Notes: generated by a model from the letters alone, not told the origin. A DNA stretch of 64,000 bases from an uncultured Gammaproteobacteria bacterium (GCA_964641355.1 CAZXND010000001.1:151858-215857); one strand, 5' to 3'; positions 38,537 to 64,000 are shown, counted from the first letter of the stretch. Program-made: numbers and translations.

Positions 38537-38571
38537 TGATGATTTAATGTTTGGGAACAAATGAGAAATGC

Positions 38572-38643: not shown

Positions 38644-38693
38644 CAACCCAAAAAATTGTCCGTCGAATCCAAGCAGATTATATAGAAACTGCC

Positions 38694-43996: not shown

Positions 43997-44698
43997 TTAT
44001 TCACGAGCCAAAGTTGCTCCCCAAACAAATTTCACCCCACTACGTTTAAGCACTTTTGCACATTCATTTAATGTCGCGCCGCTTGTGACTACATCATCAA
44101 CAATAATCACAGAAAAGTCTTTTATATATTTTTTAAACTTTGGATTTAAAATGAATGCCCCAGAAATATTTTTTTTTCGATCTTCTCTAGACAATTTATA
44201 CTGAGAGTCTGTTTTCTTTAATCTCAATAATACATCAGGAATAAATTCCAAATTTAATTTTACTGCTAATTTTTCTGCAAGAAGTGTTGAATGATTATAT
44301 CCTCGCGCTTTATATCTTTTCCTATGTATTGGAACATCGATGATTAAAGGGTTTTTTTCTAAAACATGGATAAAGCTTTCACTTTGAATTAATCCTTCAT
44401 GCATAAGATCGGATAACACATCATTTAAACTTGAAAGATATGGGGAGTATTTAAACTGATAAATCAACTTCTTTACAACACCTTTATATGTAATGCTTGA
44501 AGTTACTCCATTAAGCCCTTGCGCTCTTAAGCATCCAGGGTGTGTTGCTCCATCAATTGAATGTTTATTACAAATAGTACAAATATTAATACCGTTAAAA
44601 GAAATTCTTGCAAAACAATTCTCACAAATAAATCCTCCGATCTTTCGACAACTAACGCATTTTTTGGGAAAGAAGATGTCTAGCAATAAATCCTTCAC
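43997..44698 (-). CDS. comFC: ComF-family phosphoribosyltransferase-domain protein (competence protein ComFC-like)
   Basis: N-terminal Cys4 zinc finger (CVSCRK...CENCF) and a C-terminal PRTase motif VIIVDDVVTSGATL. Confidence 0.7.
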   Translation of the reverse strand: MKDLLLDIFFPKKCVSCRKIGGFICENCFARISFNGINICTICNKHSIDGATHPGCLRAQGLNGVTSSITYKGVVKKLIYQFKYSPYLSSLNDVLSDLMHEGLIQSESFIHVLEKNPLIIDVPIHRKRYKARGYNHSTLLAEKLAVKLNLEFIPDVLLRLKKTDSQYKLSREDRKKNISGAFILNPKFKKYIKDFSVIIVDDVVTSGATLNECAKVLKRSGVKFVWGATLARE

Positions 44699-46195: not shown

Positions 46196-46783
46196 TCATC
46201 CGCGCGAAGAGTTATCGATATTCAGATTGTTTTTTCTACTCCAAATTGCTTCGAGTTTCTTTTCTTTGAAATTTGCATATCGAGACATTGTTAGAAATAA
46301 ATCGGAAATTCTATTTATATATTTGACTACGTCCTCATCAACTTGCTCTTTTTTAAGTAGAGAAACAATCGCGCGCTCAGCTCTTCTTGATACTGTACGA
46401 GCTTGATGCAAATACGCTCCCGTTTTCCCCCCACCGGGAAAAATGAAATTTCTAAGAGGAGGCATTTCAGCTGTCATTTGATCGATTTTTTCTTCAAAAA
46501 ATTGAGTGCGTGGTTCAAGATGACTAATTAAATCGGTATTCTCTGGATTAGCAAGGTAGGATGCGCAACAAAAAAAATCATTTTGTATAAGATTAAGAAT
46601 CTCAAGTAAATATCTTTTATAAGCTCGTGTAGGTTTTCCTATCTCTGCAATTATTACCCCAACAACCGAATTTAATTCATCAATAGTGCCATATGCATTA
46701 ACGCGGGTACTATCTTTCCAAACTCTATCACCTGTTCCAAGCGATGTTTGTCCTCTATCTCCTTTTTTTGTATAAATCGGCAT
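46196..46783 (-). CDS. PduO-type ATP:cob(I)alamin adenosyltransferase
   Basis: MPIYTKKGDRGQTSL... N-terminus typical of PduO/MMAB family. The start was trimmed to ATG 46783; the track extends to 46870. Confidence 0.75.
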   Translation of the reverse strand: MPIYTKKGDRGQTSLGTGDRVWKDSTRVNAYGTIDELNSVVGVIIAEIGKPTRAYKRYLLEILNLIQNDFFCCASYLANPENTDLISHLEPRTQFFEEKIDQMTAEMPPLRNFIFPGGGKTGAYLHQARTVSRRAERAIVSLLKKEQVDEDVVKYINRISDLFLTMSRYANFKEKKLEAIWSRKNNLNIDNSSRG

Positions 46784-46948
46784 AAAAAAACCTCTCTTCC
46801 GAGAGGTTAAAACCGTTCCTGCTCGGGATATTACTAAAGCATAGTTTTCTGACTTTAACAGTTGCGGCACAGTTATGGATTTACACCATAATTACCTATA
46901 CTTTGTTTAGAACAACTACAGCTATTTTGCGATGCTCGATTTCTTGTC

Positions 46949-50278: not shown

Positions 50279-50854
50279 TTATTTTGAGTGAGGGAAGAGA
50301 TTATTTACAGATTTTTCGAACTTTTTCATCCGCATAATTTCGTGTGTCAACGCCTTCTTATTTTTTCCACTCAACTTTTTTTCATAAGGAGAAATAATTT
50401 CTTGATGTTTTCTTATAGATTGCTTCATTTGCTCAAGAAGGGGCTGGATATCTTCATTCATTTTTTTCGCCTTCTCGATATTAACGATGGCATCATCAAA
50501 ATAATTATTACTCTTAGAAAGAGTGTCTATTGCTATATCGTTTTTATTTTTGTCAAAAAGGAAAGTCGCAGCATTTGCTCTTTTATCTGATGCAAGAAGA
50601 TCAAAACTAGCTTTTTTAAGAGAATCAGATATTAAAGTACTAACGATTTTATCTCGTAAAACTTTTAAATTATACAAAGGGTTTCCAGGAAGAAGTCCTG
50701 GATATGGCATGTTGTAATTGATCTTTTCAACTTTAGGAGTATCTGTTGATATACTCTCTTCTTCCATCATTAATTCCTGAGCATAAGTTTTTGTAGAAAG
50801 AGAAAGGATGGCAACTAATATTAATACAAGACATACAACTTTAAAAGATTTCAT
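50279..50854 (-). CDS. Hypothetical secreted alpha-helical protein
   Basis: ATG at 50854 gives MKSFKVVCLVLILVAILSLSTKTYAQE, a signal peptide. 191 aa with no motifs. The track's TTG start at 50872 was rejected. Confidence 0.35.
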   Translation of the reverse strand: MKSFKVVCLVLILVAILSLSTKTYAQELMMEEESISTDTPKVEKINYNMPYPGLLPGNPLYNLKVLRDKIVSTLISDSLKKASFDLLASDKRANAATFLFDKNKNDIAIDTLSKSNNYFDDAIVNIEKAKKMNEDIQPLLEQMKQSIRKHQEIISPYEKKLSGKNKKALTHEIMRMKKFEKSVNNLFPHSK

Positions 50855-50938
50855 GAGGAAATGATAGATCAAATAGCTTCTATTGTCAACTCAGGTAGAA
50901 TTGACTTTTTAAATGATTTTAAGTCATACTAAATAAAG

Positions 50939-52558
50939 ATGAACCTTCTATCCAAGCTTTCTTTATCTCGTATAACTACATATTATATAGTAGCTCTTCT
51001 TTTCTTTGTATTTTTCTCTCTTCTTCCATCTCAAGCTCTTGCACAATCCCCACTCAACATAAATACACAAGAGGGTGTAGAGAATAACATCCACACATAC
51101 TCACAAATTGCAATGATTGAAGTTTTAAGAAGTGCATCATGCTTCTTAACAGGCAAAGACCCTCTTGCGGTTAAAGCACAATGTATAGGAGTTAATCCCA
51201 TCTCAGGCAAATATGGGTACATTAATCAAGAAAACAATGGAATGATCGGAGTTATGGGTAATTTAATGTCTATGACATTCAACATTCCAATCAGCACCGG
51301 CCAATATTCATCTTATCTTGCAAATGATTTTGGTATAGCAAAAAAGACTTATGCTCAGGGACCTGGATTTCCTGGTCTTGCACCTGTTCTTAACCTTTGG
51401 AAAACTTTTAGAAATATTTCATACTTACTGTTTGTACTCATATTTATCGCTCTTGGTCTTGGAATAATGTTTCGAGTCAAAGTTGATCCGCGTACAGTTA
51501 TGACCGTACAAAATCAAATTCCCAAAATTATTATCGCGTTGGTTCTCGTAAGTCTTTCGTATGCGATTGTTGGATTTCTGATAGATCTAATGTTTGGGTT
51601 CATTTATCTTGAGTTTAATATGATCGGATCATCAACCCCAGATATTCAAACCAATATTTTTTCTTTTGTTAATAATACTATTGACCTTGAAGGAGGAGGA
51701 ATTTTTGGAACAATGATGCTTTCCTCTCTATCAGTTGGGAAGATTATAGCTTCTTCCTTTAATAATCTTTTTGCAGAACTAGGAAGCTCTCTTCTGGGAA
51801 CTGCTACAAAAGCAATTGGAGTGCTTTTAATACCTGTGACCTTTGGTGCGTCAGGAATTCCAGCAGGTTGTGACATCGCAGGAAAAATAGGAATTGGACC
51901 AGTAAGTATAAGAGATATTCCATTTATTTCTTCTGGTTGTGATGCAGTTGATAATCTTCCTCAAATAATAATCGGGGCGATAACAACAATTCTGGCATTT
52001 TTGGTTATAGCGATTGCAGTACTCTGGGCATTATTTAGAACATGGTTTATGCTTATCAGAGCTTTTGTCTATATTCTTATAGATACTCTTTTTGCTCCTC
52101 TTTGGATATCTGTTGGAATTTTGCCAGGTGCATCAGGTCTTGGATTTGAAAAATGGATAAGGCATTTGATGGCAAACATTTCTGTTTTTCCTGTAGTCGT
52201 TGGAATGTACTTAATAGCCAATTCACTAATCCACTCATTTGGCGGCGCCAATAGTTTTACACCTCCTCTAGTTGGGAACCCAAGTCAATCAGATGCAATA
52301 GGAGCGCTTATTGCTCTTGGATTTATTCTTTCCACTCCACAAGCTATATCAACAACAAGAAACGCCTTTAAAGCACCCGACTTTAAGCTCGTCGCACTCA
52401 AAACAGCGCTTGGAGTTGGGGTTGGAGGACCAAGAAGAGTTGTAAGCGGAGGACTAGGATACGTATACAGTCCGAAGCACGATCCAAAATCAGGAACCGT
52501 TATTTATCCTGCTGGTCCTATTGGAAAAGGGTTGAGAGCGCTTGGGATTATTCGCTAG
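50939..52558 (+). CDS. Polytopic membrane protein with N-terminal secreted domain; candidate VirB6/TrbL-like channel subunit
   Basis: Signal peptide, extracytoplasmic domain of about 130 aa, then at least 6 TM helices. Assigned by architecture and genomic context (same locus as the PrgI-like and VirB4-like genes), not by motif. Confidence 0.3.
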   Translation: MNLLSKLSLSRITTYYIVALLFFVFFSLLPSQALAQSPLNINTQEGVENNIHTYSQIAMIEVLRSASCFLTGKDPLAVKAQCIGVNPISGKYGYINQENNGMIGVMGNLMSMTFNIPISTGQYSSYLANDFGIAKKTYAQGPGFPGLAPVLNLWKTFRNISYLLFVLIFIALGLGIMFRVKVDPRTVMTVQNQIPKIIIALVLVSLSYAIVGFLIDLMFGFIYLEFNMIGSSTPDIQTNIFSFVNNTIDLEGGGIFGTMMLSSLSVGKIIASSFNNLFAELGSSLLGTATKAIGVLLIPVTFGASGIPAGCDIAGKIGIGPVSIRDIPFISSGCDAVDNLPQIIIGAITTILAFLVIAIAVLWALFRTWFMLIRAFVYILIDTLFAPLWISVGILPGASGLGFEKWIRHLMANISVFPVVVGMYLIANSLIHSFGGANSFTPPLVGNPSQSDAIGALIALGFILSTPQAISTTRNAFKAPDFKLVALKTALGVGVGGPRRVVSGGLGYVYSPKHDPKSGTVIYPAGPIGKGLRALGIIR

Positions 52559-55500
52559 CTTGAAGTAAGGTTCTTAAGATCGAGTACCACTGTTGTTTCA
52601 ATCATCGCAATAATTATTAACGCAAGAATACCTCTTGCGGAATAGAGCTTAAGTCGTCCATTTTTATCCACTTCAAGAATTGATTCTAAATCCCTAAATT
52701 GCTTCTCAGCATTATGCGTTCTCTCTTCAATCAACTTTCTCTGCTCCTCATCAGATAGAAGTTTTTCTTCATCGCTTAATTCTCCGACGCTATTTGCAAG
52801 CTTAATTCTAATATGGTCTAACTTTTCTCGCAAATCATCTCTTGTTAGAGATGCAGCCTGAGGACCGTAAATTTCCTCGAGTCTTGAAGTTGCTCTTCTA
52901 AAAGGTTTGTCTATTCCAAAAACATCCCAGAAAAATCCTTTTTTCGCCACTTCAAAAAGAGTACCAACCGTGTGTCTAACTGATTTTGCCCTACCCCCTT
53001 GTCCCAGATATTGACTGGCTGATTCTGCAAATTCCATCGCAGATTTGACACGCTCATCAATACCTTCTGATTTAAGAAAAGCAGTAAGCGCTGAGCCGGC
53101 CTTCATTGCGTTTGATATATCATTCATGTTTCTAACCAAAGCATCTGCGCCCCTATCTTTAGACCAAATACTTGAAAGCATTTTCAAGCCAGACCCTTCT
53201 GGACCTTCTTCAAGATCTTTTATAGAAATGTCATCTACCCTAAGAGTTCTTGTATAGATGTCATCAAATTCTTTTCCCCATGAAAGTTTTTTAATTTTTT
53301 CCGAAGTAACGAAACCCTGCATAGAAGAAAACATTTTTTCAAGTTTTTCTGCCTCTTCTTCGCTTCTTAAAAATTTCACCAAAGCACTCCTTTGCATGGG
53401 AGTTAGATGTGCAAAGTCAATTTGCTCTGGTACTCCTTCATTAAATTTTCCATTTAAAGCATCTTCTCTCATCTTGCTTATTATTGCTCCATACTCTTGT
53501 TTGAAACCATCAAATTTATTCTGTGCCTTAAATGCTTTCACTTTCCTTTTTAGCGAGTCTAACTCTTCCCTTCCAAGGGAGAGCGCTTTGCTTGATAGCT
53601 TTTCTAAATTTTCATCATCAAAATAGGATTTAAAAAATTCGAATTCTTTTTTGTCTGTTCCGTCGTATTTTATTTCTACAAAGGGCGAGGACGGATCAAG
53701 AAGAAGCTCTTGAAAATCAGAATCACTAGGAGCTTTATCTCTAAAAAGTCTTATCACTTCTTCGGTTCTAAATTTTCTAATTTTTTTCCAAATGTCTTCT
53801 AGCTCACTGAGCTTTGATTCTTTGTCTTTTGGATTTCTTGTAGCTCCTTTCAACTGCATAAAAAGCCCAAAATTATTAGCCTCTTTTACTGTCTCTTTGA
53901 ATCTACTTACATCTGACATCCTACCACTCAACTCAAATTCCTTTAATCTTTCCTCGATAAGATCATATGCCTCGCCTTCGCTTATTATTCCGAGCTTAGT
54001 CGCCACTTTATATTCAAAAAACTCTCTGTGCCTCTCTCGAATACCAAGAATTCTCCAACCAGAAGAATAAAAATCAGCTACTGCAAATAGGTCCTTAAAA
54101 AGTTTAGAACCTGCTCTTTCAGCTTCTAAATCATTCTCGTATTTAATTCCCAACTCACTAGCTCTTTCATAAGCCATTCTAAGCTTCATCTCTCTTAGAA
54201 ACTCTCTATCCTCAGCATTAAGAATGTTAAATTTTCCAGTGAGGAATTCTTCATAGTTAAAGATATTGAAAGCAGCACCTGGATCAGAATAGATGGCTAG
54301 AAGGCCCGGTGCATGTTCACCACGAGAAGCAATAACTATTTCTCTTTGCGAATCAACCAAAATGTCATAGGCCGTTCTAATAGACCTCTCTACTTTTTTT
54401 CTAGCACGGTCTAAATCTAATAAATTCCCTTTCTCATCTTTAAACTCATAAACACCAGCTTCAACCATCTTCATTTGTTCTTCGATAAGATCTTCATTGA
54501 CTCTTGTAACAGTCTCAGAATATAAATGCTGCTCGAATCCTCCTTGTCTTAATCTCTCATCTTCAAGCTTGTCGGCTATTCTAAAATACATGGCTTGAGT
54601 AAAACCGTCTTCAAAACTAAGTGCCTTAAACATCCCATGAGATTGAAGTCTTGAGGCTGCACCTTGGATTTGCTCAATTGATCTTGATTCAACGTTAACC
54701 CGCATAAATAACGAGTTTATAAGAATATTGTATCGCTCAGAAAATTCGGTAAGAACTTTTGTTCCATCAGCTCTATTTCCAATAGTAATTTCAAGATATC
54801 TAGTCGCTTCTCCAAAAGCTCTTTGGAGAGTCTCAAAAACAGGAGACTCTAATTCATTTCCTCTTCTTGCTGTATCATAAAATAGATCAAACTTCTCACT
54901 TAACCATCCCTGAGGATCAATGTCCAACTGTTCCATATCCTCAGACTGAATTGTAAAAAAGTTTCTTCTTTCTCTATCCTGTGAATGACTCAAGCGTTTT
55001 TCTATTGCAGACTCTTGATCAGCTATGGACTTTAGAACCTGCGCCTTCTCAACTCCATTAACACCCTCCATTTCATCAACTCTTTTAAAAGCCGCCCTTA
55101 GTTCTTCCAACTGTCTCCCTACATTACCCTGAAAAATATCAAAATTACGATTAACCCTTCCTATTTCTGCAATAAGCGATAAGTCTTTTATACCCTTATT
55201 ACCAATCGCATCTGCCCCACCCTCAACAGGTTTAACACCCATCTCTCCTAAAATTCTAGCGACCTGTCTTTCCTCTGAGGATATTACCTGGCCCCTACCT
55301 TCTCTTTCTTCAAAATGTTTCTGCCAATCGTTTGTCATGCTACTTATTTGAGGATTAGTTAAAAGTTCGCTGCCTCGACCTTGATAGGGTTTGCTTCTAA
55401 TCTCAGCTGCCCCTTTTCTAACATCAAGATTTATTTTTCCATCAAAAGAAGCTGGACTTCCTTCTTGTTTCGGTTCCATTCTACCTTCCAGTGTATAAGG

Positions 55501-55563
55501 GTTCACTCTTTGTGTCAACTCAGATTGATTTAAAAAGATTATTCTTTCTTTCATAGATCGCAT
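52555..55563 (-). CDS. Giant (1002 aa) alpha-helical/coiled-coil protein with single C-terminal TM helix (tail-anchored)
   Basis: No enzymatic motifs found. It is charged and Glu/Lys/Arg-rich. The only hydrophobic segment is C-terminal (GILALIIIAMIETTVVL). Its 5' end overlaps the VirB6-like gene by 4 nt on the opposite strand. Confidence 0.4.
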   Translation of the reverse strand: MRSMKERIIFLNQSELTQRVNPYTLEGRMEPKQEGSPASFDGKINLDVRKGAAEIRSKPYQGRGSELLTNPQISSMTNDWQKHFEEREGRGQVISSEERQVARILGEMGVKPVEGGADAIGNKGIKDLSLIAEIGRVNRNFDIFQGNVGRQLEELRAAFKRVDEMEGVNGVEKAQVLKSIADQESAIEKRLSHSQDRERRNFFTIQSEDMEQLDIDPQGWLSEKFDLFYDTARRGNELESPVFETLQRAFGEATRYLEITIGNRADGTKVLTEFSERYNILINSLFMRVNVESRSIEQIQGAASRLQSHGMFKALSFEDGFTQAMYFRIADKLEDERLRQGGFEQHLYSETVTRVNEDLIEEQMKMVEAGVYEFKDEKGNLLDLDRARKKVERSIRTAYDILVDSQREIVIASRGEHAPGLLAIYSDPGAAFNIFNYEEFLTGKFNILNAEDREFLREMKLRMAYERASELGIKYENDLEAERAGSKLFKDLFAVADFYSSGWRILGIRERHREFFEYKVATKLGIISEGEAYDLIEERLKEFELSGRMSDVSRFKETVKEANNFGLFMQLKGATRNPKDKESKLSELEDIWKKIRKFRTEEVIRLFRDKAPSDSDFQELLLDPSSPFVEIKYDGTDKKEFEFFKSYFDDENLEKLSSKALSLGREELDSLKRKVKAFKAQNKFDGFKQEYGAIISKMREDALNGKFNEGVPEQIDFAHLTPMQRSALVKFLRSEEEAEKLEKMFSSMQGFVTSEKIKKLSWGKEFDDIYTRTLRVDDISIKDLEEGPEGSGLKMLSSIWSKDRGADALVRNMNDISNAMKAGSALTAFLKSEGIDERVKSAMEFAESASQYLGQGGRAKSVRHTVGTLFEVAKKGFFWDVFGIDKPFRRATSRLEEIYGPQAASLTRDDLREKLDHIRIKLANSVGELSDEEKLLSDEEQRKLIEERTHNAEKQFRDLESILEVDKNGRLKLYSARGILALIIIAMIETTVVLDLKNLTSS

Positions 55564-55600
55564 TTTACAGACTCAAAACCCTCTTTACTTGATAATCTCC

Positions 55601-55620
55601 TCACAATTTCATCACAATTT
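55601..55620. promoter_or_regulatory. Tandem direct repeats TCACAATTT-n2-TCACAATTT in divergent promoter region
   Basis: Two perfect 9-bp copies with an 11-bp period. They overlap the -35 region of a TATAAT (55643..55648) that lies only 6 nt from the ATG of the NTPase-wHTH gene, suggesting a leaderless transcript. Confidence 0.35.
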
Positions 55621-55654
55621 AGCCTCAAGAAAATAAATAGGTTATAATATTCTC

Positions 55655-56980
55655 ATGAAACAAAACGAAGCCTCTCATTTTGAATCCCTCTATCCTGCCG
55701 AAACCCGAGAGAAAGAAATTGGCGAAATCATTGGGTTTGTAAAAAAGGGCTTATCTTCACAACTAATTGGTCTTCCAGGAAGTGGGAAAAGCAATGTTTT
55801 AAATCTTTTAACATACAACAGAAAAGTGCGAACTCTTCATTTAGGAAACGCGCAAAATAAATACCATTTCGTATACATGGATTTTTCCGAAATTAAAGGT
55901 CGAAATAATTTTGAAGTTATTAAATTTATTCTAATTTCACTCGCCTATTCACTTTCTGAAAGAAGAATGAATAAAGAATATGGAGAGATAAATAAATATT
56001 TAAAAGAAGCAATTTCATTTAATGATGAGCTCATTCTTTTCCAAGCGCTTAAAAAAAGCATTGATTTTCTAGCAAACGAATTAGACCTTACCGTAATCCT
56101 TCTACTGGACAGGTTTGATCAATATTTTTACGATGTATCAGATTCCTTTTTTCTTAATTTAAAAATTCTAAGAAATAGGGCGAAGTATAAATTTTCTACC
56201 GTTTTCTCACTTTCACGCTCAATACAAGAACTCCTAGAAGAAGACGTTTATTCTGAATTTTCTGAATTTTTTTCTCAAAACAAGGTCTTTCTTAGTCTTT
56301 TTGACAAAATAGGCATAGCATTTAGACTTTCATATCTTGATAAAACCACTAATAAAAAAACAAGTGAAATGACAAAAAAAGAACTTCTAAGAATAACATC
56401 CGGACATGGAAAATTGACTCGAGTAGGATACGAACTTTTACTTTCTGAAAAAGAAATATCCGACATTGAAAACTTTTTAGAACAAAAAGACATTATTAAA
56501 AAAGTCTGTTATGAAATTTGGGATACTCTTACCCCTGCCGAACAAAATATTTTAATAAAAATTTCAAAAAAAGAAGATATAAAAATCCCAAATTATTTTG
56601 AAGAAATAGAACTTATAAAAAACGGGGAAATATATATTCCAATTTTTGAAAAATTTCTAAGCAAAGTAAAATTCAAAAACGAATTAATAGTTTATGATGA
56701 AGGAAAAAATGAGATACTTAAAGGTCAAGATAATTTAACAGATGTTTTAACTCCGCTAGAATTTAGAGTCTTAAGATTTTTAATTATAAATAAAGATAGA
56801 ACTTGCGAAAAAGAGGAAATTATTAACTCTGTATGGAAAGACTCAAAAACACAAGAAGGAGTTAGCGACCAAGCCTTAGATCAAATCGCTTATAGACTTA
56901 GAAAAAAGATTGAGAATGACCCCAACAATCCAAATTACATTTTAACTATCAAGGGTCGTGGTTTTAAATTTAATCCTTAA
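55655..56980 (+). CDS. P-loop NTPase fused to C-terminal OmpR/PhoB-type winged-helix DNA-binding domain (putative locus regulator)
   Basis: N-terminal Walker A LIGLPGSGKSNVLNLL in an AAA/STAND-like domain of about 250 aa. The C-terminal 100 aa match the trans_reg_C pattern (LTPLEFRVLRFLIINKDRTCEKEEIINSVW...SDQALDQIAYRLRKKIE...ILTIKGRGFKF). Confidence 0.55.
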   Translation: MKQNEASHFESLYPAETREKEIGEIIGFVKKGLSSQLIGLPGSGKSNVLNLLTYNRKVRTLHLGNAQNKYHFVYMDFSEIKGRNNFEVIKFILISLAYSLSERRMNKEYGEINKYLKEAISFNDELILFQALKKSIDFLANELDLTVILLLDRFDQYFYDVSDSFFLNLKILRNRAKYKFSTVFSLSRSIQELLEEDVYSEFSEFFSQNKVFLSLFDKIGIAFRLSYLDKTTNKKTSEMTKKELLRITSGHGKLTRVGYELLLSEKEISDIENFLEQKDIIKKVCYEIWDTLTPAEQNILIKISKKEDIKIPNYFEEIELIKNGEIYIPIFEKFLSKVKFKNELIVYDEGKNEILKGQDNLTDVLTPLEFRVLRFLIINKDRTCEKEEIINSVWKDSKTQEGVSDQALDQIAYRLRKKIENDPNNPNYILTIKGRGFKFNP

Positions 56981-56982
56981 GC

Positions 56983-58353
56983 TTGTATTTTAAATTTAGA
57001 TTCGGTTATGATTTAAGAGTGAGAAAATTCCTTCTTCTAATAATAATTCTAATTACTTTTTTTTCTATATCAAAGATTTCCTTTGCACAAGAACAAAAAA
57101 CCCCATCTTCTACTCCTGCTGCTTCTGATCCAAACGGTTACGGAGCAATTATTACTAGCCCATCGAATCCGGACGACATAGTTGAAGGGCACAAGATTAT
57201 AACTGTAAAATTCACAATCCCATCATCAGAAATTGGAAATGAATTTTTACTTTGTCAGGAAGCAGATTGCGGTGAAACTCACGACAAATTAAATAATGGA
57301 ATCGCAGACTCAAAACCCACTACGGCAAGTTTTGATATTAAAGTATGTGGAGCAGAAGCTGGAGTTTTACAAACCAATAATTGCGAAAACAGTGGCTCTG
57401 ATCTTTACGGTGGAATGATGTACTATCTTACATTGGTAAAACATGAAAGAGAATCAACTGGGCAAGTAACAACCTCGGAATCATTCACTCCTGTTGCGAG
57501 TGTCAGTTTTTATGTTAAAAGAATCTATCCAAATGTTGATTTAACTTCTGAAAACGAAAACAAACCGCGTATTGGATCGAAGCCTATCTTACATTTCAGC
57601 CAAAACGAATTTCCAGTACCAGAAGATGCCCTTACTGATACTTATACGTATAAAGTTCAAGTTTTTAAAATTGGAGCAAGTGATGAAGAGTATGACTATC
57701 AAGAAGAAGTAGAACTAAATGAAAATAATAAGTCTGATGACCTCAAAATAACTACAAACGGGGAGACCGGAGGTGGCCTCCCGGAAGGAAATTACATTGT
57801 AAAAATTTTCCGTAAATCCTCCCCCTTCACTGATTCTGCAAATACAGTAGTCGGGGGAGATGGTTTTCTAATGTACACAATCGATTTTAGCGTCACGAAT
57901 AATGGGGGAAAGATAGGAGTAAAGAAGAAAGACCCAGAAGGGAAAGATAATAGACTTTTTGCTGCAGGAGATCAGCTCAGTCCGACCCCTCCTCCACTTC
58001 CCTGCTTGGAAGGGTGGAAAGACGATCAAAAAACTATAATATCTCAGGATCCTAAAGAAATAAAATATTGTACGAAAGTTGGTACAGCGCTGGGAAGTCT
58101 TGAGGTAATGCCTCTTGGATTAATATCAAATCTTCTAAGATGGTTCCTTGGTATTGCCGGATCCGCTTCGCTTATTATCTTTCTTTATGCAGGATATGTA
58201 TTAATGACATCAGCTGGAAACAAGGAAAAGGTTCAGGGGGCACGTGAAACAATAACCTCAGCCATTGTTGGACTGATATTTATCATTTTTTCTGTAGCAA
58301 TTCTTGAATTTATCGGCGTTGATATCTTGCAAATTCCAGGACTTGGAAAATAG
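56983..58353 (+). CDS. Secreted Cys-containing 330-aa domain fused via Pro-rich linker to a C-terminal VirB2/TrbC-like two-TM pilin module (candidate tip adhesin/minor pilin)
   Basis: Signal peptide, a soluble domain with 6 Cys, a SPTPPPLP linker, then ...LISNLLRWFLGIAGSASLIIFLYAGYVLMTSAGNKEKVQGARETITSAIVGLIFIIF..., which is homologous to the three downstream small proteins. Confidence 0.45.
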   Translation: MYFKFRFGYDLRVRKFLLLIIILITFFSISKISFAQEQKTPSSTPAASDPNGYGAIITSPSNPDDIVEGHKIITVKFTIPSSEIGNEFLLCQEADCGETHDKLNNGIADSKPTTASFDIKVCGAEAGVLQTNNCENSGSDLYGGMMYYLTLVKHERESTGQVTTSESFTPVASVSFYVKRIYPNVDLTSENENKPRIGSKPILHFSQNEFPVPEDALTDTYTYKVQVFKIGASDEEYDYQEEVELNENNKSDDLKITTNGETGGGLPEGNYIVKIFRKSSPFTDSANTVVGGDGFLMYTIDFSVTNNGGKIGVKKKDPEGKDNRLFAAGDQLSPTPPPLPCLEGWKDDQKTIISQDPKEIKYCTKVGTALGSLEVMPLGLISNLLRWFLGIAGSASLIIFLYAGYVLMTSAGNKEKVQGARETITSAIVGLIFIIFSVAILEFIGVDILQIPGLGK

Positions 58354-58356
58354 CCA

Positions 58357-58701
58357 ATGAAAGATTTATTAGCTCTGACAGTACAAAACCCAAGCGGAGT
58401 AATCGAAAAATTGAGTCCTCCTCCCGAAATAATCAGTGGGCCGGGCACAACAAATACAATAGTGAGATTTGGTCTTAATCTTCTTGTTGTTACTGGAATT
58501 ACCGCATCTCTTATCTATATGCTTCTTGCCGGAATTAAATGGATAACTTCTGGCGGAGACAAACAGAAGATCGAAGAGGCAAGGAAGGGAATTACATATT
58601 CAATAGTTGGAATTATTATTATTTCTTTGTCTTTTGTAATCATACATTTAATAGGAGAAATATTAGGCGTACAGCTTCTCTCAAGGTTTGGTGTTAAATA
58701 A
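58357..58701 (+). CDS. Two-TM pilin-like protein (VirB2/TrbC-like topology), paralog 1
   Basis: 114 aa: ...NTIVRFGLNLLVVTGITASLIYMLLAGIKWITSGGDKQKIEEARKGITYSIVGIIIISLSF... Hydrophobic helix, conserved charged loop, hydrophobic helix. Confidence 0.45.
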   Translation: MKDLLALTVQNPSGVIEKLSPPPEIISGPGTTNTIVRFGLNLLVVTGITASLIYMLLAGIKWITSGGDKQKIEEARKGITYSIVGIIIISLSFVIIHLIGEILGVQLLSRFGVK

Positions 58702-58713
58702 AAAGTTGCACTA

Positions 58714-58742
58714 TTGACAAACTTTTTAGAACATGCTCTAAT
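58714..58742 (+). promoter_or_regulatory. Sigma-70-like promoter (TTGACA-17-TCTAAT) upstream of the signal-peptide-bearing pilin paralog
   Basis: A perfect -35 hexamer with 17-bp spacing to an A/T-rich -10, about 10 nt upstream of the ATG at 58752. Confidence 0.3.
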
Positions 58743-58751
58743 AAATTAGAT

Positions 58752-59189
58752 ATGAAAAAATCACTTAACTTAAAAAAGGCAATAATTCCCTTATCGGCTT
58801 TTGCTTTACTTGCAGTTGCGACTCCAGCATTTGCTGCCACCCAACAACAAGTGATTGACTTAAGTCCTGTTAATGGAGTTGTTCCTAGTAGTGCTGTTCA
58901 AGTAAGTGACGTTATAAGATTTATTATCAATTTACTTGTAGTCATCGCTGTAATTGCTTCTCTTGTATACCTTATTTACGGAGGACTTCGATGGGTAATT
59001 TCAGGTGGGGACAAAGAGAAAGTTGAAGCAGCAAGAAAAACAGTAGTTGCTGCAATTATCGGCTTGGTCGTTGTTCTTCTCTCATGGGTTATAATCACAG
59101 TTGTGATGCAAATCGTAACTGGAAAGGCGCTTAATAATTTCACTCTTCCTACACTACAATCTCCAAACACACAAACTAAACCTCAATAA
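58752..59189 (+). CDS. Two-TM pilin-like protein with cleavable signal peptide (candidate major pilin), paralog 2
   Basis: 145 aa. Signal peptide MKKSLNLKKAIIPLSAFALLAVATPAFA|A, then ...SDVIRFIINLLVVIAVIASLVYLIYGGLRWVISGGDKEKVEAARKTVVAAIIGLVVVLLSW... About 60% identical to paralog 1 across the core. Confidence 0.5.
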   Translation: MKKSLNLKKAIIPLSAFALLAVATPAFAATQQQVIDLSPVNGVVPSSAVQVSDVIRFIINLLVVIAVIASLVYLIYGGLRWVISGGDKEKVEAARKTVVAAIIGLVVVLLSWVIITVVMQIVTGKALNNFTLPTLQSPNTQTKPQ

Positions 59190-59228
59190 CCTCCTTTTAC
59201 TTTCTCAAAATTTTTATATAATAAAATA

Positions 59229-59558
59229 ATGAATAGTCTCAATACTAGCAACTGGAACTCGTGCATCGACAGTGCTTATGGTGTTCCACAACTTACATGC
59301 CTTTGGGTAATTTTGAGTAATATCCTTAACGCCTTCCTTACTTTATCAGGACTTGTAGCATTATTCTTAATAATCTATTCTGGGATAAAATTTATAATGT
59401 CGCGCGGAGATAAAGAAAAAATCGAAGGAGCAAGAAAAACTTTTATTTTTGCTATTATCGGGCTCGTTTTTATTCTATTATCTTTTTATATTTTAGTATT
59501 TATAGGACAACTAACAGGAATTAAAATCGATAAGTTAATAACCCCGCCACAAAGATAA
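59229..59558 (+). CDS. Two-TM pilin-like protein, paralog 3
   Basis: 109 aa: ...LSNILNAFLTLSGLVALFLIIYSGIKFIMSRGDKEKIEGARKTFIFAIIGLVFILLSF..., the same conserved core. Confidence 0.45.
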   Translation: MNSLNTSNWNSCIDSAYGVPQLTCLWVILSNILNAFLTLSGLVALFLIIYSGIKFIMSRGDKEKIEGARKTFIFAIIGLVFILLSFYILVFIGQLTGIKIDKLITPPQR

Positions 59559-59560
59559 CT

Positions 59561-61339
59561 TTAAGAAGTAATTCCTCCTATAATTGCCGCTGCTTGTCCA
59601 ACTCCCCCAAGAGCTGCAAAAGCCAGGAGGAAGATTAGAGCTTTACCTTTTTTTGTACTTCCAAAGGCTTTTAATCTTTTTAGTAGCTCGACTTTTTCTT
59701 TTGTTGTTTCTTTTGAAACTCCCATTTCTTTATCAATCATTTCTCCTTTTTTAAGAAGCTCGTTAAACAGTTCTTCTCCGAATTCAGGATTGTTTACTAA
59801 TTTAGTAGCGTCTTCATTGCTTATTCCCACAATCATTCCCCGAGAAAGAATTTCAGTCTTAACACTTTCGCGAAGATTACTCGCAAATTCTGGATCATTA
59901 GCAATTCTCTCTTTGATTTCGACTGCTCTTACCTCTTTTCTAGCCTCAAACTGCATATCCGTCTCTCCTTCATTCTTAACCAAACTATCCTTCGCAAGTC
60001 TTACAATCATAGCGTCATTACCATTCTCTATTAAGTATTTTGTGTACTCTTGAACCTTTTTCCTATCAAACTCAACCTTAATTTGTTTTCCTACTACTTT
60101 TTTAACTTCTGTTGTTTGGATTTGTTTTAAAATGTCTTTTTTGTCGTTATCTTTTTCAGCAGCAATTTCTCTTGTGGTAATCTGATTAAGAGCTTCTATT
60201 CTCGCTTGTGCATCTTGAGCAAGTTGCATTTCTGCTTTAACCGTAATAATACCCTTTGCAGTCTCAATCATTTTCACATCTTGCGCTGCCTTTTCTTTCT
60301 CAGTAGTGTTAAAAGCATCTTCTGCTTTTGTCTCCTGCTCTTTTAGTGCTTCCAGTTCTTCACTTAATCTTTCTTCTTCCTCTTCAAGAGTTTTGATTTT
60401 TCCAGGTAGGCCCTCTTTTTCTGATTTTAACTGAAGATATCTTTGACGTTTCTCACGAGCTTGTCCGAAGGATAGATATTCCTTTTCTTCATTAGAAAGA
60501 CTGCTTGGATCAATTGCATTTTTTGCTTTTGCCGCAGCGATTGACGTCAATATCTGGTCAGGTCTCGCTTTTGCACCATACATTTCAAAAAAAGCAACTT
60601 CTATCGGCCTGTCATAAATTTCAAAATCCTTCACTCCTGAACTTTCAAGGTTAGAAAGCTCTCCTGCAATAGTAAGGTTTCCACTTGCATCGGCAAGTTG
60701 TCCATTAAATTCTTCCTGCCTACTTTTCGCCTGAGCCAAATCTTTAGAACTATTTTCTCTTTCCCCTTCTTTCCTTTCACGATCTTTCTTGGCCTTATCA
60801 AATTCTTTTCTAGTCATAACAAGCTTTGCCTCAATCTCACTCGGTCCAAAACCTTGCTCAAGAACTTTTTTTATCTCTTCCTGAAGATTCTTATTGCCCA
60901 AAACGAATTTTGCGACCTCTCTTGTCTCATCCTCACTCAATCCACCAAACACCTCTTCGTTAGCTTGAAACCTAGCGGTAACCTGATCTAGTATTTTATC
61001 TTGATTTGTTCTATCGATATTAGCAAACCCTTTTTCAGCAATTTCTTGGGCTAACTGTAAATTCTCTTTTGCCTCTTGGTATTCTTGTACGCGATCCCCC
61101 GGAGGACTTCCCAGTCTATCTTCGAATCTCTCTTGAGCGTTGAAATCTAAGTTATTTTCTTGTTGAGCAAATTTTTTTAGTATATCTTCTGCATTTTGAT
61201 TTTTCGCTAATTCTTCCCTAATTCTTTGTCCCATATCACGATTTGTCTGCTGCTCAGGAGTAAGATGTGCCCCTGGTGCTACCGGCTTTCTTTCAGTCAT
61301 TGATCTAACCGCAATTTCTGCTTTATTGATGTCCGCCAT
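59561..61339 (-). CDS. 592-aa highly charged coiled-coil protein with single C-terminal TM helix (tail-anchored)
   Basis: Glu/Lys-rich with no enzymatic motifs. The C-terminal segment ALIFLLAFAALGGVGQAAAIIGGITS is the only hydrophobic region. Confidence 0.4.
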   Translation of the reverse strand: MADINKAEIAVRSMTERKPVAPGAHLTPEQQTNRDMGQRIREELAKNQNAEDILKKFAQQENNLDFNAQERFEDRLGSPPGDRVQEYQEAKENLQLAQEIAEKGFANIDRTNQDKILDQVTARFQANEEVFGGLSEDETREVAKFVLGNKNLQEEIKKVLEQGFGPSEIEAKLVMTRKEFDKAKKDRERKEGERENSSKDLAQAKSRQEEFNGQLADASGNLTIAGELSNLESSGVKDFEIYDRPIEVAFFEMYGAKARPDQILTSIAAAKAKNAIDPSSLSNEEKEYLSFGQAREKRQRYLQLKSEKEGLPGKIKTLEEEEERLSEELEALKEQETKAEDAFNTTEKEKAAQDVKMIETAKGIITVKAEMQLAQDAQARIEALNQITTREIAAEKDNDKKDILKQIQTTEVKKVVGKQIKVEFDRKKVQEYTKYLIENGNDAMIVRLAKDSLVKNEGETDMQFEARKEVRAVEIKERIANDPEFASNLRESVKTEILSRGMIVGISNEDATKLVNNPEFGEELFNELLKKGEMIDKEMGVSKETTKEKVELLKRLKAFGSTKKGKALIFLLAFAALGGVGQAAAIIGGITS

Positions 61340-61679
61340 TGCTTATTTTTATCTCCTCTCTCACTATATTTAGCGCCTCATCTATTTTTCCTTCTTTTGC
61401 GAGTTCGCTTGCGGCCTCAGCCACTTCCTCATCTTTTTTTTCCTGAACCTCTCCACTCTCCACAACCAAAAGATAAGAAAAGACAGACCATTTTGATGAT
61501 AATACGCGAAGAAAATTGATAAGCTCCTCGTGTGTATTTACTTTTTCCATCTCCTTAACTATGAATGAAGAAAGAGAGGGGACTTCTTTTGATGGGATCA
61601 TATCCTGCTCAAGAGCATCTGCTATCAACTCCACTATTTTTTTTGCAACTTCCCTTTTATGCTCTGGCGTTAAATCCAT
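61323..61679 (-). CDS. Hypothetical small acidic soluble protein, translationally coupled to the 592-aa gene
   Basis: 118 aa; it overlaps the downstream gene start by 17 nt. Confidence 0.3.
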   Translation of the reverse strand: MDLTPEHKREVAKKIVELIADALEQDMIPSKEVPSLSSFIVKEMEKVNTHEELINFLRVLSSKWSVFSYLLVVESGEVQEKKDEEVAEAASELAKEGKIDEALNIVREEIKISNGGHQ

Positions 61680-61884
61680 ACTATTTTATTATTGGATAAT
61701 TAAATTTTAATGTCAAACAAACTCTGAAATTAAAATCCTATAAAGTTGAGACTCAAGTAATATTTCCAAAACGATTTATACCCATAGTTTTCACGATTTG
61801 TGCCTAGCTTGATATAGTTAATAGCCTTGCAATGAAAATTTTCACGTTATACGCTTAGTTTACGGCTATATACCAATAACTCTG

Positions 61885-63051
61885 GTGTATTTCTCGCCCA
61901 GAAAGGCTCGTAATATGGAAATGGAGAATCATCCGATTCCCCTTGATGTTACAGGATTTAAATTTAGACTGATAGGAAGCATGACTGTTAAGCAGTTTTT
62001 GTATCTTTTGGCTTCTGGAATACTTGTATCGCTTACACTTCTTCTTCCCTGGCCACTTTTAATAAGAGTTCCAATGATTACTTTTTTCTCTTTGGTTGGA
62101 TTTAGTCTGGCTTTTATTCCAATCGATGGAAGACCCATGGATAAAATGATTGCTAGCTTTGCAAAACACGTTCTGTTTACAGAAGACTTGTGGGTTTATC
62201 GAAAAAAAGGAGCAAATATTGCTTCTTATGAAATCTTCCAAGAACCCAAAGTTGAAACAAAACCCGCTCCACAAGAACCATCCCAACCAAGTATACGCAC
62301 TTTTGCTATTAAAAAACCTCACGTAAAACTCGAGCAAGAAGAACTCGATTTTTTGAAAAGAGTACGAGGGTTTTTCTCAGAATCAGCCGTTCAACAACAA
62401 CCAGTTATAAATTCTACAACTTCTTCTCCCCATCCAACGCAAACAGAAGGAGAAGAAGCCTTGAAAATCCGCACTGAGATTCAACAAATTAAAAATCGTG
62501 TGGAAGTTGAAGGTCCAACAGAAGAATTAAAAAAAAGACTTACAGAACTCGAAGCAAGACTTAGCAATATTCTCGCTCAAAATATTGCCCTTCAAAATAA
62601 AGTATTTGAATTTCAAAGACAAATTCCAGACAAGGCTTACCAGGTGGAAGGCAAACCTACTATAACACCTAACGCAAGACTAGTAGACAGCGCAAGTCAA
62701 GTTAAGGCTGGCTTTCCAATGCTTCCTGATATCCCAAACGTGATACTTGGAATAGTAAAAGATCCCAGAGGTAGGATTTTACCTGGAATTATAGTCGAAG
62801 TGGTAGATCAAAATAATATTCCAGTGCGTGCTTTTAAAACAAATAAATTAGGACAATTTGCTGCCGCAACACCTCTTCCAAATGGAAAATATAAAATAAT
62901 TTTTGAAGATCCTCAAAAAAACAACGAGTTTGAAACAATCGAGATAGACCTTAATGGACAAATTTTTCAACCGCTTGAGGTTATTTCAATTGATCAAAGA
63001 GAGAGACTTAGACAAGAGCTCTTTGGTAAGACAAATTCGTTACAAAACTAA
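61885..63051 (+). CDS. PrgI/VirB3-like T4SS membrane protein fused to coiled-coil and C-terminal beta-sandwich (CarboxypepD_reg-like) domain
   Basis: The N-terminal 110 aa (PLDVTGFKFRLIGSMTVKQFLYLLASGILVSLTLLLPWPLL...FSLAFIPIDGRPMDKMIASF) match the PrgI-family pattern (..tfrQllYLl.. hairpin of two TM helices). The VirB4-like gene follows immediately. The C-terminus has VILGIVKDPRGRILPGIIVEVVDQNNIPV...GKYKIIFEDP. The start may be at M11/M13. Confidence 0.5.
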   Translation: MYFSPRKARNMEMENHPIPLDVTGFKFRLIGSMTVKQFLYLLASGILVSLTLLLPWPLLIRVPMITFFSLVGFSLAFIPIDGRPMDKMIASFAKHVLFTEDLWVYRKKGANIASYEIFQEPKVETKPAPQEPSQPSIRTFAIKKPHVKLEQEELDFLKRVRGFFSESAVQQQPVINSTTSSPHPTQTEGEEALKIRTEIQQIKNRVEVEGPTEELKKRLTELEARLSNILAQNIALQNKVFEFQRQIPDKAYQVEGKPTITPNARLVDSASQVKAGFPMLPDIPNVILGIVKDPRGRILPGIIVEVVDQNNIPVRAFKTNKLGQFAAATPLPNGKYKIIFEDPQKNNEFETIEIDLNGQIFQPLEVISIDQRERLRQELFGKTNSLQN

Positions 63052-63052
63052 T

Positions 63053-63685
63053 ATGTCAAAGAGGAAAATTTCATCAACAACACAGGACTTTACAGAACTA
63101 ATAGACATAATCGATGGAATCGCTTTTTTCAAAAATAGGAATTCAGCTCTTGTTGTTGAAGTTTCATCAGTTAATTTTTCACTGCTCTCCCCCGATGAGC
63201 AGAACTCAAGGATCTATGGCTACATGAGTCTTTTAAATTCTCTTTCTTTTCCAATCCAAGTCCTAGTAGTAAGTCAGAAAATAAATATGTCTTCCTATGT
63301 AAAAACATTAGATCAAAGAATCACAAGTTCACAAAACTCAAGAATTTCAAAACACTTAGTCGAATATAAAAACTTTATAAAAGAGCTCACAAAAACGGAA
63401 GGACTTCTTGACAAAACGATCTATGTAGTTATTCCACTCACCCCTCTTGAGCTTGGAATATCAAACGTTGCAAAAGAGATAAAAAAACAAGCCGAGTTTG
63501 TAGAAACAACTAGAAAAACACTTAATAGTCGGGCAGCAAGCGTTATTAACCAACTACAAAGACTAGGTCTTACAGCAAAAGTACTCAACTCAGACGATTT
63601 AGCAAGACTTTACCATAATATTTATAACCAAGAATCGATAAATATAGAGTATGAGTCACAGGATTTAAAGAATGTGATTTTATAA
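63053..63685 (+). pseudogene. VirB4/TraE-like T4SS ATPase, N-terminal 210-aa segment (ORF terminated by TAA; continues in another frame)
   Basis: STTQDFTELIDIIDGIAFFKNRNSALVVEVSSVNFSLLSPDEQNSRIYGYMSLLNSLSFPIQVLVVSQ follows the N-terminal-domain pattern of Gram-positive VirB4 homologues (..DG.i.....g.f...y.l..iNF.l...dEqe.i...y...LNs.....Q.....). The start at 63053 was chosen because its first codon abuts the stop of the PrgI-like gene. Confidence 0.5.
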
Positions 63686-63689
63686 AAAT

Positions 63690-64000
63690 ATGTTTGGAAA
63701 AAAGAAACAAGCAACTCCACCTCAACCCAAAATCTCTCCGTCTATGTCTGCTTTAAAAAGCGGATCGATATCACTTGTAGATTTAATCGCCCCCTCATCG
63801 GTTGAAGTAGATTTTAAATTCGTTAGGATCGGGGATAGTTTTTTTAGAACCTTCTTCGTTGCAGATTATCCAAGAGTCGTGTCTCCAGGCTGGCTTTCAA
63901 GCCTTATCGACTTTAAGGAATCAATGAATATCTCCATGTTTATTTACCCAGTTCAAAGCTCAGACGTTTTATCTAACCTCCGAAGAAAAATTGCCGAGAT
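63690..64000 (+). CDS. VirB4/TraE-like T4SS ATPase, continuation (+1 frame), truncated by window end
   Basis: MFGKKKQATPPQPKISPSMSALKSGSISLVDLIAPSSVEVDFKFVRIGDSFFRTFFVADYPRVVSPGWLSSLIDFKESMNISMFIYPV matches the conserved ..DLIAP.....f...G..y.Rt.fi..yP..l...wl block of Gram-positive VirB4 homologues, at the expected distance from the N-terminal segment. Confidence 0.5.
   Translation, partial: MFGKKKQATPPQPKISPSMSALKSGSISLVDLIAPSSVEVDFKFVRIGDSFFRTFFVADYPRVVSPGWLSSLIDFKESMNISMFIYPVQSSDVLSNLRRKIAE

Follow-up and report, generated by a model that had tools for sequence, protein, structure and literature searches.

Patescibacteria account for a large share of bacterial diversity, and to our knowledge no member of one of their lineages, the Levybacteria, is in cultivation. 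In Saccharibacteria, a type IV secretion system (T4SS) is essential, is closest to Gram-positive conjugative systems, and is encoded in a cluster with a pilin series where neither a relaxase nor a coupling protein can be recognised; in Southlakia epibionticum, transposon sequencing (Tn-seq) showed that it is required for epibiotic growth on a host bacterium (Wang et al. 2023, PMC10633639). A survey covering 2,474 patescibacterial VirB4 loci found VirB4 in 2,417 of 3,035 genomes, as one clade within MPF_FATA; it also reported TrsD, PrgI/VirB3 and VirB6, and it counted 441 VirB2 arrays with 2-11 genes each, above all in Microgenomatia and Saccharimonadia (Quinonero-Coronel et al. 2025, PMC12102498). 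In the same survey the T4SS location was chromosomal, relaxases were present in 103 of the 3,035 genomes, and VirB6 was scarce in Microgenomatia. A 2025 review counts these systems as a recognised T4SS type (PMC12857230), and according to a 2025 preprint, most Gram-positive T4SSs have VirB2-like pilins (10.64898/2025.12.18.695078). The locus described here occupies the final 13 kb of a stretch of 64,000 nucleotides (hereafter the window; CAZXND010000001.1:151858-215857), titled as DNA of an uncultured Gammaproteobacteria bacterium. It is very probably a Gram-positive-type (MPF_FATA-like), chromosomal, non-conjugative T4SS of Candidatus Levybacteria (Microgenomates, candidate phyla radiation (CPR)), and thus of the Patescibacteria kind already described.

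Genes were called in the last 13 kb of the window, and 30 further open reading frames (ORFs) of the window were scanned along with the downstream contig, which was supplied by Logan contig L001 (100% identical to window positions 59478-64000, adding 6.5 kb downstream). The locus comprises twelve genes in five apparent transcription units, given here with their members (aa, amino acids):

50939-52558, plus strand: transcription unit 1, the VirB6-like gene, encoding a 539-aa polytopic membrane protein with a signal-like N-terminus and about 7 hydrophobic segments.
52555-55563, minus strand: transcription unit 2, a giant acidic protein of an orphan family (1002 aa, pI 5.4), whose C-terminal hydrophobic segment is weak.
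55655-59558, plus strand: transcription unit 3, the regulator, the long pilin and three short pilins.
55655-56980, plus strand: regulator of 441 aa, P-loop NTPase-like with a C-terminal OmpR/PhoB winged helix, heading the pilin operon.
56983-58353, plus strand: long pilin of 456 aa, with PF18895 at residues 380-443.
58357-58701, plus strand: pilin paralogue 1, 114 aa, PF18895 at 29.4 bits, two hydrophobic helices; its array position is held in most species.
58752-59189, plus strand: pilin paralogue 2, 145 aa, PF18895 at 39 bits, with a signal peptide that looks cleavable.
59229-59558, plus strand: pilin paralogue 3, 109 aa, PF18895 at 37.7 bits, with two N-terminal Cys.
61679-59561, minus strand: transcription unit 4, the small acidic protein followed by the tail-anchored acidic protein, with a 17-nt overlap.
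61323-61679, minus strand: small acidic cytoplasmic protein, 118 aa, pI 4.8.
59561-61339, minus strand: tail-anchored acidic protein, 592 aa, pI 5.1, hypervariable.
61915 onwards, plus strand: transcription unit 5, the PrgI-like gene, the gene for a 210-aa protein, and an ORF from 63690 that runs past the window end.
61915-63051, plus strand: prgI-like gene, 378 aa from the ATG at 61915 or 388 aa from a GTG at 61885.
63053-63685, plus strand: TrsD-like gene, 210 aa, homologous to the VirB4 N-terminal region, between prgI and virB4.
63690-64000, plus strand: 5' end of virB4, encoding a 656-aa ATPase (whole gene at L001:4213-6183).

The gap of 2 nt between the regulator and long pilin genes and the short gaps between the pilin genes indicate an operon structure for transcription unit 3.

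The completed VirB4 scores 422.3 bits against the NCBIfam equivalog model conju_CD1110, "VirB4-like conjugal transfer ATPase" (cut-off 325), and it matches P-loop_TraG (7e-31), CagE_TrbE_VirB (3e-6), AAA_10 and DUF87 in Pfam. Walker A (GKSGSGKS) and Walker B (ILFVDEAW) motifs are present in the sequence. The closest plasmid matches are VirB4 proteins from Bacillota and Actinomycetota, with 31-38% identity, while orthologues across Levybacteria species are 64-75% identical. The PrgI/VirB3-like protein scores 28.4 bits against PF12666, just over the cut-off of 27, and has two adjacent transmembrane (TM) helices at 32-70 followed by a long C-terminal extension resembling CarboxypepD_reg (PF13620, 27 bits, below cut-off). 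Its orthologues lie immediately upstream of trsD in 17 loci. The TrsD-like protein carries PF26593 (TraC-like; precomputed annotation) and has NCBIfam matches to VirB4_plasma (residues 105-284, 2e-8), CD1110 (residues 13-181, 1e-6) and, below cut-off, the TrsD/TraD family (4e-4); counterparts in 17 loci are 45-50% identical. Because this 210-aa protein aligns to the N-terminal region of VirB4, the VirB4 N-terminal domain appears here as a separate gene.

A first account of the window, made without database searches and called here the sequence-only reading, had described a Gram-positive-type T4SS locus in a CPR-like genome, with a PrgI-like protein directly followed by a VirB4-like ATPase. The core parts were found, the named homologues are Levybacteria or Levyibacteriota, and the PrgI and VirB4 families are both recovered above cut-off in hidden Markov model (HMM) searches; the direct adjacency is not correct, as the TrsD-like gene intervenes. 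The reading had also proposed extending the contig downstream. This completed virB4 and revealed genes for a 712-aa single-TM protein, a 184-aa bitopic protein, a 418-aa CHAP-domain protein and a 235-aa Big_5 protein, with no relaxase or integrase in the 6.5 kb. The 712-aa protein (L001:6192-8330, window-equivalent 65669-67807) is encoded directly after virB4, and partial orthologues follow virB4 in 6 related loci. It has a charged N-terminal half, a strong TM helix at 333-351, and a Cys-containing ectodomain with a metallopeptidase-like HEISH (HExxH) motif; no match was found for it in Pfam, NCBIfam or PDB, nor for the 184-aa protein in PDB.

For comparison among species, a scan of one genome per species gave about 30 full-length loci, which were then searched with every window protein. 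All labelled loci are from Levyibacteriota or the "Patescibacteria group", and NCBI taxonomy places Levyibacteriota within the Microgenomates group. In about 26 species the gene order is ribonucleotide reductase (RNR), NrdR, DUF5667 protein, VirB6-like protein, giant minus-strand gene (0.9-1.5 thousand aa), regulator, long pilin, three short pilins in constant paralogue order, a variable insert, PrgI, TrsD, VirB4, and a protein of the 712-aa type. Median identity to the window proteins is 70% for VirB4, 68% for NrdR, 60% for RNR, 52% for the regulator, 48% for TrsD, 39-48% for the short pilins, 39% for PrgI, 38% for the VirB6-like protein, and 28% for the long pilin. The GC content of the locus (0.33-0.38) is the same as that of its flanks, with no flanking tRNA or compositional break at the locus, and the rest of the window holds housekeeping genes (MetRS, GroEL, LepA, MurJ, UvrD, FemAB, TIM, TatD, HrcA, tmRNA, and tRNAs). 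As the sequence-only reading had stated for the window, no relaxase or integrase was detected: library scans of 40 ORFs, including the 30 further window ORFs and the 6.5 kb of L001 downstream, found none, with no direct search made for an origin of transfer (oriT). Conserved synteny, housekeeping-like divergence, flank-like GC, and the lack of a relaxase or integrase together argue for an old, vertically inherited chromosomal system and not an integrative and conjugative element (ICE).

One gene of the window that the sequence-only reading did not mention encodes a homologue of coupling proteins:

36028-38457, plus strand: VirD4/TraD-like coupling-protein homologue of 809 aa; the locus begins 13 kb further downstream, and virB4 is 25 kb away.

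Its Pfam scores are just above the cut-offs (TraG-D_C 25.4 bits against 22, TrwB_AAD_bind 21.7 against 20.5, and T4SS-DNA_transf 20.4 against 20.1); its NCBIfam matches are SXT_TraD (1e-13) and the CD1115 VirD4-like family (2e-6), and its neighbours are housekeeping genes. The distance agrees with the published observation that type IV coupling protein (T4CP) genes of Patescibacteria usually lie far from virB4.

The system most like the window locus is the Saccharibacteria T4SS (Southlakia epibionticum SEML1_0006-0019), along with the Patescibacteria VirB4 clade to which it is compared here. These are likewise chromosomal and Gram-positive-like, with VirB4, TrsD, and PrgI/VirB3, an in-cluster array of divergent VirB2-like (PF18895) pilins, wall hydrolases after virB4, no relaxase, and a coupling-protein homologue encoded far away. 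The sequence-only reading saw no match to a textbook T4SS; for the pilin array and the overall design this does not hold, since relaxase-less chromosomal Patescibacteria T4SSs with pilin arrays were published in 2023-2025 (PMC10633639, PMC12102498). The window locus differs in its Levybacteria lineage, in a VirB6 that HMMs do not detect, in the P-loop/winged helix-turn-helix (wHTH) regulator heading the pilin operon, in the two Ig-like domains on the first pilin, and in the giant acidic genes interleaved on the opposite strand. No description of the last four features was found in the text or supplements of PMC10633639 and PMC12102498; no mention of a winged-helix regulator (PF00486) or of coiled-coil neighbours was found in the papers cited here, and the lone mention of a fusion concerns VirB3-VirB4 fusions, not a pilin. 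A limited literature search found no paper on a Levybacteria T4SS, which is not proof of novelty.

Two conjugative systems show more distant likeness. In the MPF_FATA system of CD1110/CTn2 type on the Clostridium botulinum plasmid pCDC3875 (locus L085), VirB4 is 31.6% identical to that of the window and the local order is also PrgI, small protein, VirB4, then wall hydrolase. However, on pCDC3875 the genes immediately upstream are VirD4 and the CD1112 VirB6/TrbL gene, the hydrolase is of SLT type, and a MOBP relaxase is encoded, while the window has a separate gene for the VirB4 N-terminus, a very divergent VirB6 10 kb away, VirD4 25 kb away, and no relaxase. The Prg/Pcf system of pCF10 with PrgF_B2 (10.64898/2025.12.18.695078), likened by description, is also monoderm; it too combines a VirB3 of the PrgI type with small VirB2-like pilins, which have two helices and have been proposed to assemble into a pilus. 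It is conjugative, encodes a relaxase and a coupling protein, and has a single pilin with the adhesin (PrgB) as a separate protein, whereas the window encodes four conserved paralogues of the pilin, one of them fused to an adhesin-like domain. The core of the locus is thus of a kind already known; the regulator, the long pilin, the two giant families, and the divergent VirB6 were not found described in the literature searched.

The four PF18895 (T4SS_pilin) modules score 29.4-39 bits (cut-off 26.6) and have pairwise identities of 28-43%, with two hydrophobic helices flanking a conserved SxGDKEKxxxAR loop. Paralogue 2 also matches the NCBIfam Mbov_0395 pilin-like model (1e-6) and is the only one to match TrbC/VirB2 (PF04956), weakly (17.3 bits against a cut-off of 27.9); the hairpin topology of the pilins fits this family. 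Paralogue 3 is nearest to the fused module (43% identity) and is the most conserved pilin among species (median 48%). The conserved, non-interchangeable array positions suggest that the short pilins probably have distinct structural roles.

The long pilin has, in order, a signal/anchor helix, two Ig/FN3-like beta-sandwich domains, a Pro-rich linker, a Cys pair, and a VirB2-like helical hairpin. In its AlphaFold2 model (predicted local distance difference test (pLDDT) 72), an N-terminal helix precedes strands over 54-305, with beta-sandwich domains at about 50-180 and 184-305, a small hairpin after the linker, and the pilin hairpin at 377-448 (helices 377-409 and 414-448); Foldseek returns generic FN3/Ig pairs (E 4e-6 to 1e-3). 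All six Cys are at columns conserved in the family, which includes 41 homologues of 335-626 aa, all but one with PF18895; the two that are named are from Levybacteria and Roizmanbacteria. The long pilin is always the first pilin gene in related loci. The sequence-only reading had described three tandem pilin paralogs and a fourth module fused to a secreted Cys-containing domain, and both PF18895 in all four and the six conserved Cys bear this out; structure prediction, which it had suggested for the fusion protein, models the N-terminal part as two beta-sandwich domains. In three species the array is interrupted between the second and third pilin genes by a gene without a counterpart in the window:

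L005:13129-14616, L014:13348-14790, and L022:13253-14746, minus strand: insert of ~490 aa encoding a multi-TM protein.

The assignment of a VirB6 is more difficult. The 539-aa protein has no match in Pfam, NCBIfam, or a PDB-sequence profile search, and a Pfam scan of 22 sequences found no match to TrbL/VirB6 (PF04610) in the window protein or 21 orthologues. The homologue P0237 has 24.7 bits against TrbL, near the cut-off of 25.9, and hhalign of the window protein with the CD1112 VirB6/TrbL protein gives a probability of 0.3. In the predicted structure (pLDDT 70, predicted template modelling score (pTM) 0.57), the three best Foldseek matches are TrwI/VirB6, none of them significant. TrwI of R388 (7o3v, 8rt9, 8rtd) and DotA of the Legionella Dot/Icm system (9ngy) have only 9-10% identity to the 539-aa protein, which differs from them in an extra Cys-containing N-terminal ectodomain, Gly-rich loops, the lack of a Pfam TrbL match, and the absence of the partner VirB5. 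The protein described as VirB6-like by the sequence-only reading is therefore a candidate for a highly divergent VirB6/DotA-fold protein at the fold level only; the fold comparison agrees with that description, but HMM and profile searches do not. Divergent from this gene, a protein with DUF5667 and an N-terminal anchor is encoded at 50279-50872 on the minus strand. Its position is kept in about 24 species, so it may be a part of the system, or the conservation may be no more than synteny.

The regulator matches Trans_reg_C (3e-18) and weakly AAA_22 (0.011) in Pfam, its Walker A motif is GLPGSGKS, and its profile matches the DNA-binding domains of PhoB, RegX3, and KdpE in PDB (1e-13 to 1e-10), in agreement with the earlier description of a P-loop NTPase with a C-terminal OmpR-type wHTH. 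Full-length homologues are 45-57% identical, hundreds of them at about 50-57%, and those that are named are from Levybacteria or other Patescibacteria. The C-terminal winged helix is common to OmpR/PhoB transcription factors, but the N-terminal 330 residues are P-loop NTPase-like and the receiver domain is absent, with no Response_reg match in Pfam or NCBIfam; relative to SARP/AfsR-type regulators, the domain order is reversed. In many orthologues (GVGRSN) Arg stands in place of the Walker A Lys, and an invariant DR, not DE, is found in the Walker-B-like motif. The motifs suggest that the P-loop domain may bind nucleotide without hydrolysis.

Promoter elements conserved among species precede three of the transcription units:

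50901-50930, plus strand: promoter-like site of the VirB6-like gene, TTGACT-18-CATACT in a consensus scan.
55589-55620, plus strand: promoter core of the regulator-pilin operon, TTGATA, then tandem CTCACAA-N4-(A)TCACAA with an 11-bp period.
61788-61852, plus strand: prgI-trsD-virB4 promoter region, with two TTTTCACG boxes 51 bp apart at 61788 and 61839, the second inside TTTCACGTTATAC.

Upstream of the VirB6-like orthologue, the arrangement TTGACTTTTT...CCATACTAAA is kept in most Levybacteria loci. Upstream of the regulator, the consensus scan gives TTGATA-18-CACAAT at 55589-55618, TCACAATTT occurs twice (55601 and 55612), and CTTGATA-N5/6-CTYACAA-N4-CTYACAA precedes the orthologue in most of the about 26 species; the 7-bp repeat is present in two or three copies, the last of which often doubles as a TACAAT -10 element. 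These 7-bp repeats with an 11-bp period in the regulator's own promoter resemble the Pho-box geometry of OmpR/PhoB factors. On the minus strand, 55589-55620 reads TTGTGA-17-TATCAA, so the same hexamers could serve both directions with -35 and -10 swapped, and the 91-bp intergenic region could hold a face-to-face bidirectional promoter for the regulator-pilin operon and the divergent giant gene. The regulator mRNA would be leaderless if transcribed from a TATAAT at 55643-55648, which stops 6 nt short of the ATG. Upstream of prgI, two TTTTCAC(G/A) boxes are 51-63 bp apart across species and TTTCACGTTATAC is nearly invariant; TTTCACG[TGA][TAG][AT]TAC occurs a single time per 20-kb locus, immediately upstream of prgI, in 15 of 17 loci. 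The first prgI box coincides with the scan site TTCACG-17-TATAGT.

The sequence-only reading had noted that TCAC(A/G)ATTT recurs in both divergent promoter regions. Three copies (55601, 55612, and 61791) do overlap species-conserved promoter elements, but the fourth, at 61236, is within a gene, and the motif is not enriched, since 4 observed copies compare with 2.5 expected and 24 of 100 shuffles reach 4. As stated, TCACRATTT as a shared operator is rejected on this ground. The looser repeat pattern and TTTTCAC are also at shuffle level in window-wide counts; what carries meaning for all of these motifs is only their conservation across species at fixed positions in promoters.

No Pfam, NCBIfam, or PDB-sequence match was found for the 1002-aa protein, as a single sequence or as a 29-member profile, but its family numbers 94 cluster representatives, of which 82 reach E<=1e-30, and long stretches align at 30-40% identity. 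A minus-strand gene of 900-1470 aa is present between the VirB6-like gene and the regulator in every related locus. These genes are of two families, that of the window in 11 loci and a second in 17, which iterated HMM searches of the positional analogues did not unite; both have the N-terminal motif M.E..LT...Y(P/S)...M(D/E)E. For the 592-aa protein there is no Pfam, NCBIfam, or PDB match and no detectable orthologue in the species set; its position in other species is filled by several unrelated families or is empty. Homologues of the 118-aa protein are encoded in 14 related loci, always adjoining a large variable gene, and the pair is inverted as a unit in L023, L025, and L028.

Both large proteins had been called giant tail-anchored coiled-coil proteins. 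The C-terminal hydrophobic segment is clear in the 592-aa protein (569-587, mean hydropathy 2.15) and borderline in the 1002-aa protein (971-989), and it is found in many members of the giant families but not all. The coiled-coil part of the description is weakly supported: a crude heptad scan flags only 12-14% of giant-protein residues, compared with 4-7% of controls, and the label was not adopted for this reason. The invariant R/D/G/W columns in the 1002-aa family also mark it as something other than a plain coiled coil. A role of the giant proteins as secreted substrates would be compatible with their conserved position, their fast divergence, and the presence of a small acidic partner.

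If the parts work as in known T4SSs (R388, pCF10), from which the following steps are drawn, VirB4 would sit on VirB3 and VirB6 and extract membrane-embedded pilins; these would polymerise, with VirB6 as the platform, to give a short pilus or a conduit that crosses the wall. The CHAP protein and the membrane protein with the HExxH motif could open the wall locally. On the fibre, the long pilin would expose its pair of Ig-like domains and probably act as an adhesin, either at the tip or as initiator, and would in this way take the place of the missing VirB5. The P-loop/OmpR-wHTH protein probably controls the pilin operon and the divergent giant gene, and the giant acidic proteins, one of them with its small acidic partner, may be substrates or cytoplasmic accessory parts. 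The machine would most likely be used for host-cell contact and transport to or from the host, rather than for conjugation. A more specific joint proposal for the lineage-specific layer combines the giant proteins, with their shared N-terminal motif, and the hypervariable tail-anchored protein, with a chaperone-like partner, as host-delivered or host-inserted substrates; a receiver-less P-loop/wHTH switch gating the pilus; and the Ig-domain pilin as a VirB5-replacing tip adhesin that sets host specificity. Taken as a whole, this combination is doubtful.

Several points weigh against parts of the interpretation as a chromosomal, non-conjugative host-interaction system. Its function is assigned entirely by analogy with Saccharibacteria; the chromosomal and non-conjugative parts of the sequence-only reading agree with the results, and its host-interaction part would hold by that analogy. 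The VirD4-like gene in the window makes transfer of a substrate, even DNA, possible. No VirB8-like protein was identified in the locus or the L001 extension, and the VirB6 assignment depends on a medium-confidence model, with every sequence and profile test negative. The Lys to Arg change in Walker A of many orthologues makes NTP hydrolysis by the regulator doubtful, and the conserved repeats may be wHTH operator sites or plain promoter hexamers, as their sequence fits either.

The other explanations differ in what, if anything, would be moved and in which direction. Working in the inward direction, as Helicobacter ComB and Sulfolobus Ced do, the T4SS could import host DNA or nucleotides for a cell unable to make nucleotides; import as such is raised as a possibility in PMC12857230. 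The missing relaxase, the ComFC-like gene and VirD4-like ATPase in the window, and the ribonucleotide reductase genes that adjoin the locus in all species would fit import, although the RNR linkage may be fortuitous synteny. VirB4 also has weak NCBIfam similarity to CedB (5e-13) and CedD (2e-8), but these scores are far under the 422 bits of the CD1110 VirB4 model. Neither a DNA-binding nor a nuclease component was detected in the locus, and competence in Saccharibacteria needs ComEC and type IV pili, with the T4SS essential independently of ComEC (PMC10633639, PMC12857230); import is accordingly judged improbable. An appendage for adhesion only, with the pilins and Ig-domain pilin as an attachment fibre, nothing transported, and the giant proteins as unrelated neighbours, has as points in its favour the four pilins, one with Ig/FN3-like domains typical of adhesins, the lack of a coupling protein within the locus, and a long-pilin ectodomain among the fastest-evolving parts (median 28% identity). 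This too has little likelihood, as a full translocon of VirB4, VirB3, and VirB6 is under strong constraint, the giant gene in every locus, with its shared N-terminal motif, argues for belonging to the system, and type IV pili for adhesion are already encoded, with PilO-like neighbours in the window.

A degenerate or domesticated ICE that still transfers DNA, through the distant VirD4-like protein and an unrecognised relaxase, would account for the homology of VirB4, PrgI, and TrsD to the conjugation machinery of Bacillota and Actinomycetota and for a VirD4-like gene 25 kb from virB4, and several window ORFs are without a family assignment. Identical gene order and chromosomal position in about 26 species, with divergence comparable to that of housekeeping genes, are difficult to reconcile with such an element; nor is there an integrase, relaxase, flanking tRNA, or compositional break, and relaxases are found in just 103 of the 3,035 patescibacterial genomes (PMC12102498). 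Both synteny and gene content lead to rejection of the ICE reading, which is extremely unlikely.

The Patescibacteria T4SS is the first T4SS shown to be essential for its own carrier. The Levybacteria locus is no new kind of system; it is a compact, strongly syntenic version in which candidates for missing parts can be named: a VirB6 of the sort that HMM surveys overlook in Microgenomatia, a regulator dedicated to the system, together with conserved promoter elements, a pilin that carries an adhesin, and giant proteins that evolve fast and could be substrates. These parts are concrete targets for structure prediction, for metatranscriptomics, and for genetics once a member of the Microgenomates is cultivated.

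Many GenBank records titled "uncultured Gammaproteobacteria bacterium" (or Bacteriovorax) hold the Levybacteria-specific regulator and the full syntenic locus (L005, L006, L009, L010, L014, and others), and the organism labels of those records are almost certainly wrong. Type IV pilus and competence genes share the window with the T4SS. A PilO-like protein is encoded at 18388-19023, within 17823-20735 on the plus strand, where its neighbours are a small ORF and a 458-aa Big_13/fn3 surface protein, and a ComFC-like protein (double zinc ribbon and phosphoribosyltransferase) is encoded at 43997-44698 on the minus strand. An AdoCbl-II riboswitch at 46834-46910 on the minus strand (53 bits against a gathering score of 36.5) lies between the gene for an 824-aa RNR, which NrdR adjoins, and an ORF at 46196-46870 whose product looks like a cob(I)alamin adenosyltransferase. 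Both ARAGORN and Rfam predict a tRNA-Ile with anticodon TAT at 38572-38644 on the plus strand. Such a tRNA is uncommon in bacteria, where AUA is usually decoded via a lysidine-modified CAT anticodon. Its start overlaps an ORF at 38568-40403, which suggests that the true start of that ORF is probably further downstream.

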